NCBI GenBank assembly: GCA_038532355.1
Contig: JBCBAT010000016.1
Coordinates: 9,159-73,158 of the forward strand
Source of the DNA: Pseudomonadota bacterium
GTDB lineage: Bacteria; Pseudomonadota; Alphaproteobacteria; Rhodobacterales; Rhodobacteraceae
Direction: 5' to 3'
Length of the DNA: 64,000 bases
Position 1 is the first letter of the stretch. Each line of letters begins with the position of its first letter. Shown one piece after another: positions 1 through 18,675 of this stretch. The notes under the pieces are model-generated. The model saw only the letters and a program-made list of their open reading frames with translations. It searched no databases and was not told where the DNA came from. The position numbers and the translations under genes are program-made.

Positions 1-383
1 CAGCCCGCCACGAACCGCGCGGGCAGCCCGCCATGATCGAACCGCATTGGGCACCAGGCTGGGCGATCCGTGCCAAGATGGGCAAACACGGCATCCGTCC
101 AGCCGGGCGGCAGCACCGTGTCGGCATGGAGGAAAAAGAGCCACTCTCCGGTTGCGGCCTCCGCCCCAAGCCGGAGCTGCCCGCCGCGCGATGCGGGCCC
201 CGTCACCAGACGCGCGCCCGCGGCTTCGGCAATCTGCAGTGTGCCATCGCTCGACCCACCATCGGAGATCACCAGATCGCGGATCAGACCCGCCGTCAGC
301 CCCTCCCCCAAGGCGGGCAAGGACCGTTCCAACCCGGTTTGCGCGTTCAAGGTCGGGATCACGATGGAAAGTTTCGCGGCCAT
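1..383 (-). CDS. Family 2 glycosyltransferase (TIGR04283-like), 5' part; runs off the left edge
   Basis: Manual minus-strand translation from ATG at 383 (GAGGA upstream): MAAKLSIVIPTLNA...LVISDGGSSDGT...SRGGQLRLGA...WLFFLHADT, which carries GT-A/GT2 motifs. Not in the ORF track because it is truncated. Confidence 0.85.
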   Translation of the reverse strand, partial: MAAKLSIVIPTLNAQTGLERSLPALGEGLTAGLIRDLVISDGGSSDGTLQIAEAAGARLVTGPASRGGQLRLGAEAATGEWLFFLHADTVLPPGWTDAVFAHLGTDRPAWCPMRFDHGGLPARFVAG

Positions 384-452
384 GGAGGTCCTCATTGCAC
401 TCCCCTGCCCCTATATTACAGTCCGCAGGATATTCCATGGGGCGACAGTAAG

Positions 453-1190
453 ATGCGCAAACTCTACGACATCGCGGGCAAGGATGCGGAGCCATTCCTG
501 CAAAACCTCGTGACCAATGATCTGGATGCCATGGGGGATGGGCTGCTTTACACCGCGCTGTTGACGCCGCAGGGCAAATATCTGGCGGATTTCTTTCTGC
601 ATCGCAGGGGGGATGCGATCGTGCTGGATGTGGATGCAGTGCTCGCCGAGGGTCTGGCGCGTCGTCTGACCATGTACCGGCTGCGCGCGGATGTGACGAT
701 TGAGGAAAGCGAGCTCAAAGTGTTTTGCGGCACGGGGGATGCGCCAGAGGGTGCCATGGCCGATCCGCGCCACGAAGCGATGGGATGGCGGCTTTACGGG
801 GAAAGATCGGGCGATGATGGCACGGATTTTGACGCCATTCGCGTGGTCCATTGCATCCCGCGAACGGGCGTGGAGCTGACGGAGGACACGTTCATCCTTG
901 AGGCCGGGTTTGAGCGCCTGAACGGCGTGGATTTTCGCAAGGGCTGCTATGTGGGCCAAGAGGTGACCGCGCGGATGAAGCACAAGACGGAGCTGCGCAA
1001 GGGGCTTGTGCGTGTCGGTGTAGAGGGTGCGGCGCCTGCCGGCACTGAGATTGACGCGGGCGGCAAACCTGCGGGCGTTCTTTACACGCAATCGCGTGGG
1101 CACGGGATTGCGTATCTGCGGTTTCAGCGGGCCAGCGCGGAGATGACGGCGGGTGATGCGAAGGTGGTTTGGACAGACCCGTCTGTTTGA
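453..1190 (+). CDS. ygfZ: Folate-binding Fe-S cluster/tRNA-modification protein YgfZ (GcvT family)
   Basis: KGCYVGQE signature and ALLTPQGK motif. Likely start is ATG 453; the upstream 140 codons of the track ORF look non-coding or shadow. Confidence 0.92.
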   Translation: MRKLYDIAGKDAEPFLQNLVTNDLDAMGDGLLYTALLTPQGKYLADFFLHRRGDAIVLDVDAVLAEGLARRLTMYRLRADVTIEESELKVFCGTGDAPEGAMADPRHEAMGWRLYGERSGDDGTDFDAIRVVHCIPRTGVELTEDTFILEAGFERLNGVDFRKGCYVGQEVTARMKHKTELRKGLVRVGVEGAAPAGTEIDAGGKPAGVLYTQSRGHGIAYLRFQRASAEMTAGDAKVVWTDPSV

Positions 1191-1195
1191 TTTTT

Positions 1196-1372
1196 GAGGC
1201 CGCACCGGGGCGCGGAATCAAGGCCGCAGGCCGCCGCGCCTTCGTCAGGCCCCACCCAGGGCCTGGCGAATTGGCAACTGCAGGATGTCGCTCCAGCAAC
1301 ATCCGGGAACCAAACCATAAAGCGCCGCCGCCCCAGTAACCGGATCGCCAGACCGGGGCCTGACAAAGCCGC
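1196..1372 (+). repeat. Dispersed palindromic element family A, copy 1
   Basis: Blocks GGCGCGGAATCAAGG, GCGCCTTCGTCAGGCCCC (1236-1253), GGCCTGGCGAA, ATAAAGCGC, GGATCGCCAGACC and GGGGCCTGACAAAGCCGC (1355-1372) are shared with 9224-9387 and, inverted, with 17106-17331. Confidence 0.88.
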
Positions 1373-1395
1373 TGAAGTGGTGCCTTACGCCCGCA

Positions 1396-1959
1396 TCAGG
1401 CCCGTTCCGCGTATTCCATTGTCTCTGTATTGACCACGATGTCCTCATCCGGGCCCACAAATGGCGGCACCATCACTTTCACGCCATTGTCGAGCACGGC
1501 AGGTTTGAAGCTGTTGGCCGCCGTCTGGCCTTTCACCACCGGCTCCGTCTCCTCAACTTTGCACACAACTTTTTGCGGCAAAGTCGCGTTCAGCGCCTCG
1601 TTTTCATAAAATTCGACGGTTATTGTCATGCCGTCCTGCAGAAACGGGCGGCGGTCGCCCAGCAGGTCTGCGGCCAGTTCGATCTGCTCATACGTCTCGG
1701 AATCCATGAAGACGAGCATGCCATCTGTCTCATAAAGGAACTGCTGATCCTTCTGTTCCAGCCGCACACGCTCCACCTTGTCGGCGCTGCGAAAGCGTTC
1801 ATTCAGCTTCGATCCGTTGCGCAGGTTGCGCAGCTCCACCTGGGCAAAAGCGCCGCCTTTTCCGGGCTTTACGTGATCGACTTTGACAGCGCTCCAAAGA
1901 CCGTCATTGTGTTCCAGCACATTGCCGGGTCTGATCTCATTTCCGTTGATTTTAGGCAT
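1396..1959 (-). CDS. efp: Elongation factor P
   Basis: [12 protein letters not shown]...VKPGKGGAF...[17 protein letters not shown]...Y.ERA; 187 aa from ATG 1959. Confidence 0.97.
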
Positions 1960-2061
1960 GTGGCAATTCCGTGGCAAAAGGTTGTTAAATCGTTGACGCT
2001 CCCTATATCTGGTAGCAATGCGGGGAACAAGCCAACCAGATTTCGTGCTGCACATGCAAAA

Positions 2062-2084
2062 AGCCATGCGTGATATGCATGGCT
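2062..2084. promoter_or_regulatory. Inverted repeat AGCCATGC-N7-GCATGGCT, LysR-type (T-N11-A) operator candidate
   Basis: Perfect 8-bp arms in the divergent efp / hypothetical intergenic region; the core ATGC-N7-GCAT fits the LTTR T-N11-A rule. Confidence 0.45.
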
Positions 2085-7444: not shown

Positions 7445-7720
7445 CTTGTTCTCCGGTTCAGGGTGGCCTGGCGCGTGCAATTTCTAATCTGCACAGCGCG
7501 GAAGGCAGCCCGCTAAATCTGTCATGCCGCGATTGGATCCAAGCAGCCTCAGACACAACCGGAACGGTTGCATCATTTCTGGCACGAAACCACCCCCGAT
7601 CAAAAGAGCAAAGACGTTAATTTTTGCACAATCACCTGTGGGATATCTGCGAAGACCTGCCAGACCGGCAAGCCCTTGCGCAGGAAAGCCCGATCCGGTA
7701 AGCGATGCGAGTTCCACGGC

Positions 7721-7794
7721 GGCGAGTTGGCGGAGTGGTGACGCAGCGGATTGCAAATCCGTGTACACCGGTTCGATTCCGGTACTCGCCTCCA
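7721..7794 (+). tRNA. tRNA-Cys (GCA)
   Basis: GGCGAGT/ACTCGCC acceptor stem, anticodon arm GCGGA-TTGCAAA-TCCGT, T-loop GGTTCGATTCC, encoded CCA end; 74 nt. Confidence 0.97.
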
Positions 7795-7923
7795 CTATTC
7801 CCATCCAAAGCACCAGAATCATGTCTGACGTGTCCCGTCCGCGAGGATGACAAAAAGGATGCGTGGCGAAGGGCATCTGATATGCCAGGGGTGTCTCAGC
7901 TTCCAAACACCAAGGATATCCGC

Positions 7924-9246
7924 ATGACCCTAACCGACCTGCTGCTTGACCTGGCAGAGATGCCGCGGGGGGCGTGTTCGGAGCGGGCGGTGAGGTTGGC
8001 GCGGTTTTCGCTGTTGGATTGGAGTGCCTGTGGCCTTGCCGGGCGGCAAGAGCCCGTGGCGCGGCATCTGCGCGCGTTGGCGGAGGCGGAAGGGGGGCGG
8101 CCCGTGGCCTCTGTCATCGGTGGGTGTCGCGCGCCTGCCCGCATGGCTGCGCTGGTCAATGGGGCGACATCCCATGCGCTTGATTATGATGACACGCATT
8201 TTGGCCATGTGGGGCATCTGTCTGTCGCGATTTACCCCGCAGCGCTGGCTGCCGCGGAAGAGGTGGGCGCATCCGCAGGCGATCTGGTGGAGGCGTTTTT
8301 GCTGGGCGCGGAAGGGGCCATTCGGGTGGGGCAGGCTCTAGGCCGGGCGCATTACGATCTGGGGTTTCACCAAACCGCCACCAGTGGTGCGTTCGGGGCG
8401 ACGATGGCGGCGGGGCGGATCTATGGGCTGAGCCGCAATGAGATGCGCGCGGCGTTGGGGCTGTGCGCGACGCGGGCCTCGGGGCTCAAGTCTCAGTTTG
8501 GCACGATGGGCAAGCCGCTCAATGCCGGGATCGCGGCGGCCAATGGCATGGAATGCGCGACGCTGGCGCGGTTGGGGCTGACCTCTGCCGAGGATGGGCT
8601 GGCCGGGCCGCAGGGGTTTATCCCGACGCACACGCCCCAGATCGGTGAGGTGACGCCGCCGGGTGTGTGGCTCTTTGAGGAGAACAAGTACAAGCTGCAT
8701 GCCTGTTGCCACGGCACGCATGCGATGATCGAGGCGCTTCTGGCGTGCGGCGTGGCGTTTGAGGATGTGGAGGCGATCCATCTGCGCACCAATCCGCGCT
8801 GGCTGCGGGTGTGCGATATCAAGGCCCCGCGCACGGGGCTTGAGGTGAAGTTCAGCTATGCGTGGCTGGCGGGCATGGCGCTGCGCGGGGATGCGACGGG
8901 GGATGATCGGGTCTATCGCGATGCGCTGGCCGGGGATGAGGAATTGGCCGGGTTTGCCCAGCGCGTTGAGGTGATCGGGGATGAAGCTGTGACGGATTTG
9001 CAGGCGGCGGGCGTGCTGCGCCTGAAAGACGGATCAGAGGTGGTGTTGCAGCATGATCTGGCCGCGCCGATTGAGGAGGCTGCGTTAGCTGCGCGACTGC
9101 GCCAGAAGGCCGAAGCGATGCTTGGGGACGAAGGTGCGGCGCTTTGGGATATGCTCAGCGGGTTGGATGCTATGCCTGCGACGTCCATTGGTAAGATTTT
9201 GTCGCGTGAAAGCGGTCAGAGCCCCGGCGCGGAATCAAGGGCGTAG
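7924..9246 (+). CDS. MmgE/PrpD family protein (substrate unknown)
   Basis: NGATSHALDYDDTH, GFHQTATSG, QFGTMGKPLNAG and KLHACCHGTH motifs; AAGGA RBS before ATG 7924. Confidence 0.9.
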   Translation: MTLTDLLLDLAEMPRGACSERAVRLARFSLLDWSACGLAGRQEPVARHLRALAEAEGGRPVASVIGGCRAPARMAALVNGATSHALDYDDTHFGHVGHLSVAIYPAALAAAEEVGASAGDLVEAFLLGAEGAIRVGQALGRAHYDLGFHQTATSGAFGATMAAGRIYGLSRNEMRAALGLCATRASGLKSQFGTMGKPLNAGIAAANGMECATLARLGLTSAEDGLAGPQGFIPTHTPQIGEVTPPGVWLFEENKYKLHACCHGTHAMIEALLACGVAFEDVEAIHLRTNPRWLRVCDIKAPRTGLEVKFSYAWLAGMALRGDATGDDRVYRDALAGDEELAGFAQRVEVIGDEAVTDLQAAGVLRLKDGSEVVLQHDLAAPIEEAALAARLRQKAEAMLGDEGAALWDMLSGLDAMPATSIGKILSRESGQSPGAESRA

Positions 9247-9387
9247 CCCGTCGCGCCTTCGACAAGTCCCACCCAGGGCCTGGCGAAATGTCAACGTTTG
9301 TTAATGGTTCACTCCCACAGCGACACGTCACCATAAAGCGCCTTCAATTGAGATCGGGATCGCCAGACCGGGGCCTGACGAATGCGC
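9224..9387 (+). repeat. Dispersed palindromic element family A, copy 2
   Basis: GGCGCGGAATCAAGG; arm GCGCCTTCGACAAGTCCC (9253-9270); CCACCCAGGGCCTGGCGAA; CCATAAAGCGCC; GGATCGCCAGACC; arm GGGGCCTGACGAATGCGC (9370-9387). Confidence 0.88.
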
Positions 9388-10382
9388 TATACAGGCACCA
9401 CCGTCGCCTGGCCCTGCGCCACGGCGACCTCCACGATGGACTCAGCCACGGCCAGATCCTGTAGCCCCACACCGGTGCCATCAAAGATCGTGATCTCGTC
9501 CTCAGACGTTCGCCCCGGATGCGTGCCGTTGATGACCGCGCCCAGTTGCTGAACATCCGCCTCTGCAATCAGACCCGCAGCAACGGCATGCTGCGCCTCC
9601 CCGATGGACACCGACTGCGCGACCTCATCGGTGAACACCGTGGCCTTGGCCAGCAGATCGGCGGCCAGTTCCTGTTTGCCCTTCGTGTCAGTGCCCATGC
9701 AGGCGATATGAGTGCCCGGGCTGACATGTTCGGCCAGAAGCGTGGCATCAAAGGACGACGTGATGGAAATGATCGCATCTGCCGCCTGCATCCCCGGCAG
9801 ATCGACGGGTTCAAACGGCACACCGGCCTCCATCGCAACCTCGGCAATGTTGGGCAGCATATCGGGGTGGTAGTTCCAGCCGATCACCTTCTCGAAGCGA
9901 TGCGTCTCAAGGGCCGCGCGCAGCTGGAACGTCGCCTGATGGCCCGCGCCGATCATGCCCAACACCTTCGCATCCTTGCGCATCAAATGCTTCAATGACA
10001 CCGAAGACGCCGCCGCCGTGCGCAGCGCGGTGAGCAGATTGCCCCCAACCATCGCCTTCACCCGGCCTGTATCGGGATCAAAGAGGAACACCGTCGATTG
10101 GTGATTGATCAACCCGCGCCGGTCGAGGTTATGCGGCCAGTACCCCCCGGCCTTCAGACCCAGCACACCGCCTGCGCGGTCAAACCCGCCTTTGAAGCCG
10201 TAAAGCGCGTCTTCGTGACCAATCGCCTCTCGCACCACGGGGAAGTTATAGGCATCCCCCGCCGCCATTGCGGCAAAGACCTTCTCCACCGCATCAAACG
10301 CGGCTTCGCGGGTCAGCATATCTGCGATCATGCTTTCTGGCACGATGGCCAGTTCGTGTTGGTTCAGCCCGGGACCATCCAT
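9387..10382 (-). CDS. bhcD: Iminosuccinate reductase (ornithine cyclodeaminase/mu-crystallin family)
   Basis: GLKAGGYW, LTALRTAAAS, IGAGHQA, FDGTGVGLQDLA motifs; last gene of the bhcABCD order; TGATG overlap with bhcC. Confidence 0.9.
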   Translation of the reverse strand: MDGPGLNQHELAIVPESMIADMLTREAAFDAVEKVFAAMAAGDAYNFPVVREAIGHEDALYGFKGGFDRAGGVLGLKAGGYWPHNLDRRGLINHQSTVFLFDPDTGRVKAMVGGNLLTALRTAAASSVSLKHLMRKDAKVLGMIGAGHQATFQLRAALETHRFEKVIGWNYHPDMLPNIAEVAMEAGVPFEPVDLPGMQAADAIISITSSFDATLLAEHVSPGTHIACMGTDTKGKQELAADLLAKATVFTDEVAQSVSIGEAQHAVAAGLIAEADVQQLGAVINGTHPGRTSEDEITIFDGTGVGLQDLAVAESIVEVAVAQGQATVVPV

Positions 10383-11545
10383 CAGAATGCCTTCCCGCGT
10401 GCCGATACCGGCCACAGCGTTTCCACCTTGCCGTCGCGCACGCCGACATACCAGTCATGAACGTTGCAGGTGGGGTCACAGTGCCCCGGCACCAGTTTCA
10501 GCTTGTCATTGACCTTCAGCACACCATCAGGGTCCGCGACCACGCCGTGTTCATCCGAACACTTGGCATAAACCACGTCCCGACGCCCAAACACGACCGG
10601 CAGGCCGCTGTCGATGGATTGCGCCTTCAGGCCCGCATCGACGATGGCTTTGTCCGCCTTGGCGTGACTCATGACCGAGGTCAGCAAAAACAGCGCATTT
10701 TCCCATTCGCCCTCATCAATCCGGTTGCCATCCTTGTCGAGGATCCGGCCATAATCGGCATCCATAAAGGCGTAGGATCCACACTGGAGTTCATTATAAA
10801 CCCCTGAATTGCTTTCGAAATAATAGGACCCGGTGCCGCCACCGCCGACGATGTCACATTCGATACCTTCGTCGCGAAGCGTGTCCACCGCGTCCTTCAC
10901 CATGGCCACGGCAATGTCGATCTTGGACTTGCGGGTGTCGTAGCTGTCCATGTGCTGCATCGCGCCCTGATAGGCTTGCAGCCCTGCAAATTTCAGCCCT
11001 TCGGCGGCATCGATGGCCGTGGCGATCTCCACCACTTCAGGCGTGGTGGTCACACCACAGCGTCCTGCGCCGCAATCAATTTCCACAAGGCATTCGATCT
11101 GCGTGCCATGGCTGACGGCGGCCGCCGACAGATCGGCCACATTGGCCAGATCATCCACACAGCAGATCGCCCGCGCGCCCAGTTTGGGCAGGCGCGCGAG
11201 GCGGTCGATCTTGGCCGGGTCGCGCACCTGGTTCGACACCAGCACATCCATGATACCGCCGCGCGCGAACACCTCCGCCTCAGACACTTTCTGGCAGCAG
11301 ACCCCGCAGGCACCGCCCAAATCCATCTGCAGCTTCGCCACATCGACGGATTTGTGCATCTTGCCATGGACCCGGTGGCGCATGCCATGGGCCTTGGCGT
11401 AATCGCCCATTTTTTTGATGTTGCGTTCCAGCGCGTCGAGGTCGAGCACGAGGGCGGGCGTCTGAATATCGGCCTCATCCATCCCCGGCAGCGCGGGCAC
11501 GTCATAGCCCACTTCAAGCTCACTATATTGGGTCAGATCTTTCAT
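10382..11545 (-). CDS. bhcC: beta-hydroxyaspartate aldolase (DSD1/D-threonine aldolase family, PLP)
   Basis: IQTPALVLDLD, HRVHGKMHKS (PLP lysine), ELQCGSYAFMD, GHCDPTCN; operon context. Confidence 0.92.
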   Translation of the reverse strand: MKDLTQYSELEVGYDVPALPGMDEADIQTPALVLDLDALERNIKKMGDYAKAHGMRHRVHGKMHKSVDVAKLQMDLGGACGVCCQKVSEAEVFARGGIMDVLVSNQVRDPAKIDRLARLPKLGARAICCVDDLANVADLSAAAVSHGTQIECLVEIDCGAGRCGVTTTPEVVEIATAIDAAEGLKFAGLQAYQGAMQHMDSYDTRKSKIDIAVAMVKDAVDTLRDEGIECDIVGGGGTGSYYFESNSGVYNELQCGSYAFMDADYGRILDKDGNRIDEGEWENALFLLTSVMSHAKADKAIVDAGLKAQSIDSGLPVVFGRRDVVYAKCSDEHGVVADPDGVLKVNDKLKLVPGHCDPTCNVHDWYVGVRDGKVETLWPVSARGKAF

Positions 11546-15692: not shown

Positions 15693-16634
15693 ATGCGCTG
15701 GATGATTGCCCTATTGACCCTCACCACCGCCGCGATTGCCCATGAGGATATCGCCGACAAATACCCCGAATCCCCGCTCTATAACAAACCGGTGGAGGTG
15801 ATCCCCCATGTCTGGTCCGCCATCGGGGCCACCGCGCCACCCACCTATGAAAACAGCGGGCACAACAACAATCTCAGCTTCATCGTGACAGGCGACGGGG
15901 TGATCGTGATCAATGGGGGGGCCGCGTACATTCTGGCCGAGGCGCTGCACGCGGAAATCAAGCAGATCACCGATCAGCCGGTGAAACTGGTGATCGATGA
16001 AAACGGCCAGGGCCACGCGATGCTGGGCAATTCCTACTGGGCCGAACAGGGCGTGCCGATCTTGGCGCATGTGGACGCCGCGCACGAGATTGAAACCCGC
16101 GGCAATCGCATTCTGGAGGGCATGAAGCGCTACAACCGCGACAAGGCAGACGGCACCTTCGTGGCCCCGCCCACGCAGACCTTCGAGGACAAGCACATCA
16201 TCGAGATGGGCGATTTTTACATTGAAGTGCTTTATCTCGGCCCTGCCCACGGGCCGGGGGACACGCAGGTCTGGCTGCCGGAACAGGGCCTCGTGATCGC
16301 AGGCGACATGGCCTTTCACGAACGCATGTTACCGATCTTTGAAGACACGATCGTCTATGACTGGATTGAAACGTGGGAGACCGGGTTTGAGGCCTTGAAT
16401 GCCACCTATGTGATCCCCGGCCATGGCCACCCCACCAACATGGATCAGGTCCGGCGCTATACGCGTGACTACCTTGTTTACCTGCGCGAGGTGGTGGGCG
16501 CGCATCTGGACGCGGGCGGTGATCTGGCCGATGCCTATTACGTGGATCAGACGCCTTATGCGCATCTGGACACCTATGAGGAACTGGCCACGCGCAATGC
16601 CGGCCGGGTCTATGAACAGATGGAATTTGAGTGA
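15693..16634 (+). CDS. soxH: Periplasmic MBL-fold protein, SoxH-like
   Basis: Sec signal, GHNNNLSFIV, ENGQGHAMLGN (non-canonical metal motif), GPAHGPGD, PGHG; adjacent to the sox cluster. Confidence 0.7.
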   Translation: MRWMIALLTLTTAAIAHEDIADKYPESPLYNKPVEVIPHVWSAIGATAPPTYENSGHNNNLSFIVTGDGVIVINGGAAYILAEALHAEIKQITDQPVKLVIDENGQGHAMLGNSYWAEQGVPILAHVDAAHEIETRGNRILEGMKRYNRDKADGTFVAPPTQTFEDKHIIEMGDFYIEVLYLGPAHGPGDTQVWLPEQGLVIAGDMAFHERMLPIFEDTIVYDWIETWETGFEALNATYVIPGHGHPTNMDQVRRYTRDYLVYLREVVGAHLDAGGDLADAYYVDQTPYAHLDTYEELATRNAGRVYEQMEFE

Positions 16635-17095
16635 TGCGACAGGCGCTGATGATGGCCGCCGCGCTGTGGCTTGCGACGGCTGAGGCGGTGCTTGCCGAGG
16701 CCGCGCTTTTGTCTGCGCCCGAGGCTGCCGAGCAGGTGGAGACGGGGGAGATGATCCTGCTCGATATCCGCTCCGCCGAGGAATGGGCGGAAAGCGGTGT
16801 GGCCCGAGGCGCGTGGCCCGTGTCAATGCATGCCGAGGATTTTCCCCAGCGTCTCAATGCCATTCTGGCGCGCTACCGCCCCGATCAAATCGGGCTGATT
16901 TGCGCAACCGGGGGCCGGTCGGCTTATGTCACGCGGGTGCTGGCGTCCAATGGGATCACGGGCGTGGTGGATGTGTCCGAGGGGATGTTTGGCAATGACA
17001 AGGGTGCTGGCTGGATCGCGCGGGAGATGCCCGTGGTGACAGTGGACGAGGCGATGAAGGGCTATGAGGCGGCGCAAGAGAGCTGGACGGACTAG
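16634..17095 (+). CDS. Exported rhodanese-like domain protein
   Basis: Signal peptide, LLDIRSAEEW, ICATGGRS active-site loop; TGATG coupling to the upstream gene. Confidence 0.85.
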   Translation: MRQALMMAAALWLATAEAVLAEAALLSAPEAAEQVETGEMILLDIRSAEEWAESGVARGAWPVSMHAEDFPQRLNAILARYRPDQIGLICATGGRSAYVTRVLASNGITGVVDVSEGMFGNDKGAGWIAREMPVVTVDEAMKGYEAAQESWTD

Positions 17096-17105
17096 GCGAT
17101 TTGAA

Positions 17106-17331
17106 GCGCCTTCGACAGGCCCCGGTCTGGCGATCCCGATCTCCGCACGGCAGCGCTTTATCTTCGGGTTCCCGCTGAGCGGTTGGGCGGCGCTTTGACG
17201 TCGACATTTCGCCAGGCCGTCGCGCCAAAGGCGCGCCACTTGTAGTTGGCACACCAAAGGTGTGACGTGGGGCCTGACGAAGGCGCGGCGGCGCAAGCGC
17301 CTTGTTTCCGCGCCAGGTGCGATGCGGCCTC
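17106..17331 (-). repeat. Dispersed palindromic element family A, copy 3 (inverted, longest)
   Basis: 18-bp inverted arms GCGCCTTCGACAGGCCCC (17106-17123) and GGGGCCTGACGAAGGCGC (17269-17286) with one mismatch; the other conserved blocks are present on the minus strand. Confidence 0.88.
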
Positions 17332-17335
17332 AAAC

Positions 17336-17371
17336 AAAAAACGGCCCCGGCGACAAAGCACCGGGGCCGTT
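17336..17371 (-). terminator. Rho-independent terminator of the sox operon
   Basis: ACGGCCCCGG-N10-CCGGGGCCGT perfect 10-bp stem with an A5 run (U5 on the minus strand), 17 nt past the soxF stop. Confidence 0.85.
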
Positions 17372-17387
17372 CAACATCAGATCAAGA

Positions 17388-18650
17388 TCAGCCGAACATG
17401 TCGGACGTGATGCCCGTGTACCAGCCTTCCGATTCCTCATAGGTCGCCTTGCGCACATCTGCGCTTTCGCCTGTTTGGGAAATGAAGCCATCCACCTTGG
17501 CGATCTTTTCTTCCGTCGCCTCGTAGGTCGCGCCCACTTTCACGCCGTCATTGGTCTCAATGAGCGACCAGCAGGTGTTGGAGAACTTGGCCGGGAACAC
17601 CTTCGATCCCGTCAGTGCCCCGCGCACGGCATTGGCGCAGACCTTGGCCTGTGAATTGGCCGAGAAGCCGGATTTGGGCATATCGCCCTGTTGGCTGGCA
17701 TCGCCCAGAACGTAGATGTCCGCGTCCGCCTTCGTGGACATATCCGCGGCGTTCACAGGCGCCCAGTTGCCATCGGTCACACCTGCCAGTTCCGCAATGC
17801 GGCCGGCCTTCATGCCCGGGATCACGTTGCAGACATCGACCTTGGTCACTTCCCCGTCGATCGACACGGTCATCGCACCGGGATCCACCGACACATTGCC
17901 ACCGCCGAAATCATCGCCGATCCAGTCAATCATGCCGGAATAGTGGTTGTTCCAGCCTTCCTCAAACAGCGCCTGCTTGGAAAACTTGGGCTTGGGATCG
18001 GCCACGAGGATCTTCGCGGTCGGGTTGTTGACCTTCAGATAATGCGCCACCATAGACACCCGCTCATAGGGGCCGGGCGGGCAGCGATAGGGGTTCGGCG
18101 GGGCGACCATGGCATAGGTGCCGCCCTGCGGCATGCTTTCCAACTGCGCGCGCAAGAGTTCCGATTGCGACCCGGCCTTGTAGGCATGCGGCATGGCGTT
18201 CTGCGCGGAAAGATCCCAGCCTTCGACCGACCCATCGACAAAATCGATGCCCGGGCTGAGGACCAGCTTGTCATAAGCCACCGATCCGCCACCTGCCAGA
18301 CCCACGGTCTTGGCGTCGCGATCCACGCCCACGGCCCAGTCATGGACCACGTTCACCCCATTCGCGGCCAGCCCGCCATAGGTGTGACCCAGATCATTCA
18401 TGTCCTTGAACCCGCCGATATAGAGGTTGGAGAAAAAGCAGGTGTAATAGCTGCGCGTAGGCTCAATGAGGGTGACATCCACCTCACCCTTGCTGTCCTT
18501 GGCGATGTAGCGCGCAGCCGTGGCCCCCCCGGCCCCGCCGCCCACGACAACCACACGCGGTTTGCCTTGCGCCATCACCATCGGCGCGGCCAAAGCGCCC
18601 GCGACGGCGGCGGCTGATCCGATAAATCCTCGTCTATTCAATGTCATCAT
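17388..18650 (-). CDS. soxF: Flavocytochrome c sulfide dehydrogenase flavoprotein subunit
   Basis: Tat NRRGFIG, VVVVGGGAGG, YRCPPGPYER, MPKSGFSANSQA, NTCWSL. Confidence 0.93.
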   Translation of the reverse strand: MMTLNRRGFIGSAAAVAGALAAPMVMAQGKPRVVVVGGGAGGATAARYIAKDSKGEVDVTLIEPTRSYYTCFFSNLYIGGFKDMNDLGHTYGGLAANGVNVVHDWAVGVDRDAKTVGLAGGGSVAYDKLVLSPGIDFVDGSVEGWDLSAQNAMPHAYKAGSQSELLRAQLESMPQGGTYAMVAPPNPYRCPPGPYERVSMVAHYLKVNNPTAKILVADPKPKFSKQALFEEGWNNHYSGMIDWIGDDFGGGNVSVDPGAMTVSIDGEVTKVDVCNVIPGMKAGRIAELAGVTDGNWAPVNAADMSTKADADIYVLGDASQQGDMPKSGFSANSQAKVCANAVRGALTGSKVFPAKFSNTCWSLIETNDGVKVGATYEATEEKIAKVDGFISQTGESADVRKATYEESEGWYTGITSDMFG

Positions 18651-18675
18651 ACTGTCTCCCATGTGATGATTTTTA

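Follow-up and report, generated by a model that had tools for sequence, protein, structure and literature searches.

The window analysed in this study, a stretch of 64,000 nucleotides from a Roseovarius assembly (GCA_038532355.1, contig JBCBAT010000016.1, positions 9,159 to 73,158), carries three imperfectly palindromic elements, copies 1 to 3, which probably belong to an undescribed family of structured dispersed intergenic repeats, restricted to Rhodobacteraceae and of the ERIC/REP/BIME/RIME kind. Our comparisons show that the family is non-autonomous and chromosomal, that its members are gained and lost at orthologous junctions, and that resident copies are replaced or homogenised with their blocks kept under constraint. 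The three elements were noticed in an initial annotation made from the letters of the window, and the blockwise alignment proposed there holds for all of them. The genome-wide search that it called for was carried out with BLAST and nhmmer on the host assembly (3.80 Mb, 60% G+C, 75 contigs) and returned about 113 copies, which occupy 17.6 kb, or 0.46% of the assembly. The family has no match in Rfam: at the gathering threshold only a tRNA was found in the window, and a permissive scan of copy 1 gave matches at chance level (E 0.3-3). Literature searches by the exact block sequences and by topic found no description of the family.

About 100 of the copies are full length and the remainder are variants. 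The full unit measures about 165 nt, with a 163-nt core that runs from GGCGCGGAATCAAGG to GACGAAGGCGCT. It opens with a 5' hairpin, H1, composed of an outer stem GGCGCGG/CCGCGCC, a near-invariant unpaired GGAAUCAAGG (AAUCAA), and an inner stem of 4-5 bp that varies with compensation (GGGC/GCCC, GGCC/GGCC, GGAC/GTCC, GGCGC/GCGCC). The 18-bp outer palindrome P1, whose left arm lies at core positions 28-45 and shares its first five bases with the 3' arm of H1, and the 10-bp inner helix P2 together form a long imperfect palindrome that closes over a weakly constrained centre. P2 has a conserved mismatch site, where C.A or A.C would read as a G.U wobble on the other strand. The centre measures about 75 nt and occurs as two main subtypes, a and b, which have little in common beyond GTCGCTC and the box ATAAAGCGC; an AUAAAG (ATAAAG) box in it hardly varies, either among the copies of this genome or between genera. 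What the initial annotation gave as the 18-bp outer inverted pair is the family consensus, from which the window copies depart by 1-4 mismatches in the pair, and the inner pair CTGGCGA/TCGCCAG is intact in all three.

The variants depart from this plan in few ways. Short forms of about 80 nt consist of H1 followed by a simple hairpin, as would result if a deletion had joined the internal direct repeats GGCCTGRCGAA (core 53-63 and 147-157). Module Y, 38 nt long, is inserted after core position 38 in 12 copies, on both subtype backgrounds and on a short form, and module X, of about 48-50 nt with two small hairpins, follows core position 47 in five copies, including copy 3 of the window (a full version, 96-100% identical, in three copies and partial matches in two more). 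Both modules were found only inside family members, each always at the same point. The spacer hairpins that had been named for copies 1 and 3 are real, those of copy 3 belonging to module X. The broader idea of a scaffold with interchangeable stem-loops is true of modules X and Y and of some individual copies; it does not describe the family, because the centre is mostly unconstrained and consists of two main subtypes with two insert modules. As for the ends, the tetramers GCGC, GCAC or GTGC occur within 12-13 nt outside both of them in 44-51% of 81 full copies, compared with 19% of the intergenic background, and the true termini may lie 7-12 nt further out than the core. In many copies the right flank is CTGTTGCGC, a sequence able to pair with the terminal GGCGC. 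In another genus, one locus (L153, G137:C54:18560-19050) holds two full copies and a partial third in head-to-tail order, the repeating unit being about 180 nt long, which shows that the family is able to build short tandem arrays.

The stems covary. In 47 copies of this genome, 93% of the stem cells are paired and 10 pairs have changed on both sides; none of 500 shuffles reached the observed score, and slid controls collapse. The outer stem of H1 is 97-100% paired, and the inner one swaps G-C, C-G and A-T pairs among copies. In copies from over 20 other genera, H1, P1 and P2 have rewritten arms that still pair, as in CAUCGCCGGGCCGC/GCGGCCCGGCGAUG versus CAAAGCCAGCCCC/GGGGCUGGCUUUG or in the compensatory H1 variants GGCCCGG/CCGGGCC, GGUGCGG/CCGCACC and GCACGG/CCGUGC, and the unpaired GGAAUCAAGG and AUAAAG are nearly invariant across those genera. 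The change of the H1 5' arm to GCACGG is accompanied by changes in the H1 3' arm and in the 3' terminal GGCACGG, and this joint change of three arms therefore supports both of the alternative helices in which the shared bases can take part. For the central spacers, RNAalifold gives no consensus structure on either strand, and hand-picked central helices are 45-80% paired with no consistent wobble strand.

Both strands of the element fold better than shuffled sequences, and they differ in two respects. Non-Watson-Crick cells of P1 and P2, read on the consensus strand, are A.C rather than G.T in a ratio of 145:24 within the genome and 34:3 across genera, counts that are not independent events, part of the signal coming from one inherited internal loop. 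The reverse, complementary strand is the more stable one in 72 of 100 copies (p 5e-8). Covariation could come from an RNA, from single-stranded DNA in a folded state or from protein-binding arms in pairs, and does not distinguish between the three on its own.

Comparison of orthologous junctions, also suggested by the initial annotation, revealed empty sites. The genes ygfZ and efp, which flank copy 1 here, are adjacent in 16 other Roseovarius species, and 15 of these 16 spacers are 0-109 nt long and devoid of the element; some of the element-free spacers contain an ordinary bidirectional terminator. Among 66 elements of related metagenome-assembled genomes (MAGs) whose two flanks lie close together on one contig in this assembly, roughly a third fall on empty sites. 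These sites have no common motif, and insertion boundaries are not derivable from them, since the relatives are too diverged (74-93% identity over mostly coding flanks) and the spacers do not align. The sole candidate for a deletion scar in the genome is a 25-nt remnant, GACGCGGATTTAAGGCGCTCTGTCG (C5:181953-181977), which joins the first 10 and the last 15 nt of the element at a site where a related MAG (L073) has a full copy; its appearance suggests that the sequence between two AAGG(CGC) direct repeats was deleted. On contig C25, what had seemed to be a copy split by a 46-kb inversion is a copy truncated where the contig ends.

Where both genomes carry a copy, the site is conserved to a degree that the element is not. 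We found 36 pairs at the same nucleotide position, and 32 of 37 have the same orientation (binomial p 7e-6). The flanks of shared sites are 86% identical, and third codon positions 71% identical (29% differ). The positional orthologues themselves are 74% identical overall, compared with 72% for random non-orthologous pairs: their blocks differ at 4-17% of positions, with zero differences over GGCGCGGAAUCAAGG, and their centres at 48-50%. In 34 of 36 cases (p 3e-7) a copy has a closer match in a paralogue from its own genome than in the positional orthologue, which is no better than the average paralogue. The subtypes behave in the same way. In 17 of 28 typed shared pairs the relative has b where this genome has a, and the genome-wide ratio a:b is 56:24 here versus 10:55 in nine related genomes (p 2e-11). 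From this pattern it follows that resident copies have been overwritten or homogenised within each lineage, with the scaffold held constant.

A covariance model of the family gave full-length matches in all 24 other Roseovarius species searched, with 1 to more than 50 copies each. It also matched 52 out of 121 Rhodobacteraceae genera and found nothing in 16 alphaproteobacterial genomes outside Rhodobacteraceae. Presence within a genus is patchy: one species, for instance, has 20 copies where two of its congeners have none, and the number of copies in close relatives spans 0 to more than 100. No match was found among 72,556 plasmids. With more than 100 copies in the genome, presence differences at orthologous sites, this patchiness and, as the initial annotation had stated, no transposase nearby, the non-autonomous element proposed in the initial annotation stands as a dispersed repeat; its likening to a classical MITE (miniature inverted-repeat transposable element) or to REP/RAYT is not supported as stated. 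An exact match to the H1 pattern was also seen on a contig binned as Planctomycetota (L089, JBCBZM010000007.1) from the same metagenome series as the Roseovarius-like MAGs, which is likely a case of mis-binning.

The position relative to genes is characteristic. All three window copies lie between convergent genes, as had been pointed out; the 107 assignable copies of the genome are placed between convergent genes in 31 cases (29%), between tandem genes in 58 and between divergent genes in 18, so this arrangement is not a rule of the family. Convergent spacers are nevertheless occupied about twice as often as others (5.7% versus 2.6-3.3%, p 0.001). Copies typically stand 3-15 nt behind stop codons (median 11-12 nt) in either orientation, and start codons are a median of 70-109 nt off. 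In tandem pairs the element is sense to the upstream gene in 27 cases and antisense in 29. At three loci the upstream open reading frame (ORF) extends over the first 20-21 nt of H1 and is closed by the TAG of the H1 loop (GGGC-GTA-GCCC), so that the element contributes the final seven codons of the ORF as well as its stop codon. A promoter-like site was found in none of the elements, and the terminator scan called no stem of the scaffold; its only match inside copy 1 is a weak 7-bp hairpin in the centre.

Coordinates of the three window copies and their surroundings are collected in Table 1. Core limits were set with a hidden Markov model built from 76 genomic copies (nhmmer); matches to the covariance model are listed as well. 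Relative to these limits, the ends given in the initial annotation were right within 1-2 nt, and the starts of copies 1 and 3 had taken in 13-17 nt of the flank TTTGAGGCCGCAYCG.

Table 1 Positions of the window copies, of their parts and neighbours, and of the genes that end within an element
Feature	Position	Strand	Remarks
Copy 1, core	1209-1373	+	long form, central subtype b-like; nhmmer full-length match C16:10367-10531; covariance model E 6e-35
Copy 1, left neighbour	33-1190	+	YgfZ-like (YgfZ/CAF17-like) gene; convergent
Copy 1, right neighbour	1396-2067	-	efp (EF-P); convergent
Copy 1, H1 hairpin	1209-1240	+	outer stem GGCGCGG/CCGCGCC, unpaired AAUCAA, inner 4-bp stem GGCC-GCA-GGCC
Copy 1, P1 5' arm	1236-1253	+	GCGCCTTCGTCAGGCCCC; pairs with 1355-1372; covariation within genome and across genera
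Copy 1, P2 5' arm	1260-1269	+	GGCCTGGCGA; pairs with 1345-1354
Copy 1, central segment	1270-1344	+	poorly constrained; AUAAAG box at 1317-1322
Copy 1, P2 3' arm	1345-1354	+	
Copy 1, P1 3' arm	1355-1372	+	followed by terminal T (1373)
Copy 2, core	9226-9388	+	long form, subtype a; nhmmer match C16:18384-18546; covariance model E 4e-36
Copy 2, left neighbour	end 9246	+	MmgE/PrpD-family gene (Pfam); convergent
Copy 2, right neighbour	9387-10415	-	OCD-family (ornithine-cyclodeaminase) gene (Pfam); convergent
Copy 3, core	17105-17314	-	with module X; nhmmer split match C16:26472-26425 + 26393-26263
Copy 3, left neighbour	16631-17095	+	rhodanese gene (Pfam); convergent
Copy 3, right neighbour	17388-18662	-	SoxF/FCSD-like flavoprotein gene (Pfam); convergent
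Copy 3, module X	17218-17266	-	hairpins CACACC-TTT-GGTGTG and GCGCGCC-TTT-GGCGCGC; after core position 47
Intrinsic terminator of SoxF-like gene	17339-17372	-	strong; 14-bp stem and T-run, directly upstream of copy 3 (terminator scan)
ORF end in H1 loop, window	9226-9246		copy 2, MmgE/PrpD-family gene; 21 nt of H1 within the ORF
ORF end in H1 loop, second locus	C6:172334		
ORF end in H1 loop, third locus	C2:128670		

In copy 1, the first 5 nt of the P1 5' arm overlap the 3' arm of H1, so that two alternative pairings are possible. The minimum free energy of this copy is -83.1 kcal/mol for the forward strand (z -3.0) and -99.5 kcal/mol for the reverse one (z -3.9). Copies 1 and 3, which lie 16 kb apart, are the only two to have the left-flank extension TTTGAGGCCGCAYCG in common (1193-1208 and 17336-17315), and they may go back to one duplication event that carried the flank along; the motif GAGGCCGCA, allowed up to two mismatches, matched the other copies at chance level only. 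Upstream of copy 2, the mechanically listed ORF 7705-9246 contains a tRNA gene (7721-7791; Rfam, 65 bits) in its 5' portion. The start of the true MmgE/PrpD-family gene must lie further downstream, because the Pfam domain of that gene begins only at residue 91.

A mechanism may be proposed for these data, in which the elements would propagate and overwrite one another by copy-and-paste or by gene conversion dependent on the conserved blocks. The agent would be either a trans-acting protein or host recombination. Such a protein would probably read the blocks as a folded single strand, the recognised form to which the wobble asymmetry points, with the complement of the consensus as the more likely strand, since the mismatches turn into G.T or G.U wobbles on it. 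Upon read-through from a neighbouring gene, the near-palindromic P1/P2 would form a stable stem-loop at the 3' end of the transcript in either orientation, which we propose as the reason why copies persist only behind stop codons. A more ambitious version of this proposal, which we consider possible but rather unlikely, is that the family makes up one half, as DNA (or RNA), of a repeat-plus-enzyme system that is separate from REP/RAYT and has so far gone unrecognised. In such a system, a conserved Rhodobacteraceae protein would recognise, on a single folded strand, the AUAAAG box as well as H1 and its loop GGAAUCAAGG, copy the element into sites at gene ends and overwrite the resident copies. 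If true, this would explain the homogenisation within genomes, the purifying selection that the blocks undergo at every site and the lack of target duplications.

Several observations weigh against a dispersed repeat propagated in this manner. There is neither a target-site duplication nor a cleanly definable terminus: direct repeats are not enriched for k=2-8 over 16 x 18 (288) boundary offsets in 81 copies, which are old (the best count is 14 observed versus 5.5 expected, at k=2), and a search for extra terminal inverted repeats found none. Nor was a mobilising enzyme identified. The RAYT/IS200 enzyme that the initial annotation proposed to look for was not found in this genome. The RAYT/Y1 domain (Y1_Tnp, PF01797) has no match here or in 25 of 31 Roseovarius genomes, and the six that possess it are mostly low-copy for the repeat; among the same 31 genomes, TnpB (PF07282), which would be expected for elements derived from IS200/IS605-TnpB (PATE/omega-RNA), gave no match above the cut-off and the GxxExxY nuclease PDDEXK_3 (PF13366) was found in none. 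The IS110 family does not track copy number, being absent from the high-copy genomes G005, G012, G015, G022 and G023 and present 9-10 times in the low-copy G001 and G016. This genome has a single IS110-family recombinase gene (C1:287021-287458). Near-identical copies do not occur in the genome (the best central identity is 0.90), and no recent movement is documented in it. The orientation of the copies lacks the bias with respect to GC skew that a replication-coupled single-strand mechanism would predict (29/27 versus 24/22, p 0.43), although this is a weak test in a 75-contig assembly. The replacement at shared sites might also reflect repeated independent insertion into very specific targets, an alternative that we rate as less likely, given the lack of a shared motif at the empty sites. 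Lastly, the unpaired boxes are strongly conserved wherever a copy resides, which a host function would explain no less well than selfish spread.

This last point leads to the strongest competitor, a cis-acting structured RNA selected in 3' untranslated regions, for instance as a stabiliser or processing site bound by a protein, the dispersal of which would be secondary. Stems that covary, together with unpaired boxes (GGAAUCAAGG and AUAAAG) that are invariant from genus to genus, are a textbook sign of a functional fold, and the purifying selection on the blocks of resident copies, the place immediately 3' of stop codons and the tolerance of one strand to wobble pairs all agree with it. We nevertheless regard such an RNA as unlikely: with 27 sense and 29 antisense elements in tandem pairs, half of the copies would be transcribed as the wrong strand, the unit has no promoter inside, the family matches none in Rfam, and a copy number between 0 and more than 100 among close relatives is hard to reconcile with it. 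A duplex-DNA binding platform for a nucleoid or architectural protein (IHF-like or gyrase-like), comparable to the RIB/RIP class of enterobacterial BIMEs, would account for the confinement to chromosomes, the irrelevance of orientation and the two invariant A/T-containing boxes in a GC-rich element, one of which, AATCAA, agrees with the hexamer at the core of the IHF consensus WATCAANNNNTTR. The second half of that consensus (TTR) is missing in most copies, however, and duplex binding leaves the covarying stems and the strand-asymmetric wobble unexplained, so that a platform of this type appears very improbable.

The classical MITE, that is, an internally deleted derivative of a DDE-type insertion sequence (IS) moved by the transposase of that IS through terminal inverted repeats, is brought to mind by a small, non-coding unit with an 18-bp inverted pair, many copies and presence/absence differences between species. 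We judge it quite improbable, given that the left inverted arm is internal (subterminal), behind the 32-nt H1, that none of the 288 boundary combinations at k=2-8 yields a target-site duplication, and that no long or split copy that might be the parent IS was found in this genome, the only one searched for it. In addition, the element occurs on none of the 72,556 plasmids, where IS and MITEs are common, and its resident copies keep the blocks under selection, unlike the decaying copies of a MITE. Finally, ordinary bidirectional intrinsic terminators that merely look alike are effectively refuted, as the initial annotation anticipated. The elements do stand at gene 3' ends, and occupied convergent spacers have a median of 190 nt including the element versus 50 nt for unoccupied ones, leaving little room for another terminator. 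Yet a conserved architecture of 165 nt with sequence-specific unpaired boxes, the lack of a T-tract after the stems and of any terminator-like site on the scaffold, the location of copy 3 beyond the bona fide terminator of its neighbour, and 18 copies between divergent genes are incompatible with such an explanation.

The dispersed-repeat reading can be placed among known systems; for ERIC, RIME and Correia the comparison is one of architecture, not of sequence. ERIC, also called IRU, is reportedly a 127-bp intergenic imperfect palindrome of Enterobacteriaceae and Vibrionaceae, the variants of which are said to differ by deletions or fixed-point inserts and the copy number of which is said to vary between related species; to our knowledge, no transposase has been assigned to it. 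The present family resembles ERIC in being a family-wide chromosomal intergenic imperfect palindrome of 100-200 nt with short and long variants and uneven copy number, and differs in its host family, in the additional asymmetric 5' hairpin H1 and in that no TA duplication was detected. For REP sequences, gene conversion has reportedly been proposed to keep the copies alike. With REP, BIME and REPIN the family shares GC-rich extragenic palindromes at gene 3' ends, mosaic structure, a species-specific consensus and a strand-specific G.T mismatch in the stem; its unit, however, is a 163-nt composite core (about 80 nt in short forms) rather than a palindromic unit of 20-40 nt or an inverted doublet of these, it has no GTAG-type head and no doublets, and a Y1 transposase is absent here and from most high-copy congeners. 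RIME1 and RIME2 are said to be intergenic mosaic elements of Rhizobiaceae, 100-200 nt in length and built of large palindromes, for which we know of no mobiliser. They come close as alphaproteobacterial intergenic mosaics of large palindromes in the same size range with no known mobiliser, whereas the covariance model of the present family is silent in the alphaproteobacterial genomes outside Rhodobacteraceae. The Correia elements (CREE/NEMIS) of Neisseria, 100-160 nt long, are non-autonomous and abundant. They end in 26-bp inverted repeats, have a TA duplication and are co-transcribed with their neighbours; no transposase is known for them. Abundance, non-autonomy and long inverted arms are common to both; in the present family the left arm is internal and no duplication was found.

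Background on the RAYT (TnpA_REP) transposase is given in PMC2817692, and a passage of PMC2573895 cites RIME. From the same bacterial family as the present host, MITEPye1 of Paracoccus yeei has been described as a non-autonomous intergenic element with a long stem-loop, IS1182-like terminal inverted repeats and direct repeats, which occurs in 1-3 copies per chromosome and also on plasmids (PMC11578231). Despite the likeness in host family and in being a non-autonomous intergenic stem-loop element, identity with MITEPye1 was rejected, as the present family has neither IS1182-like terminal inverted repeats nor direct repeats nor low copy number nor plasmid copies. On our analysis, the family would be best filed as a new one among dispersed structured intergenic repeats that have no identified mobiliser, because it fails the tested features of REP/RAYT and of classical MITEs and matches no Rfam family.

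Rhodobacteraceae, that is, the roseobacter group and its relatives, are among the most studied marine bacteria, and yet this abundant element was found undescribed in our literature and Rfam checks. It matters for annotation, as the element fills whole intergenic spacers and provides the stop codon of some genes. The invariant unpaired boxes offer a concrete bait for a partner protein. For the evolution of repeats, the family represents a clean case for the long-standing question of how dispersed palindromic repeats stay alike, in this instance with no RAYT to explain it.

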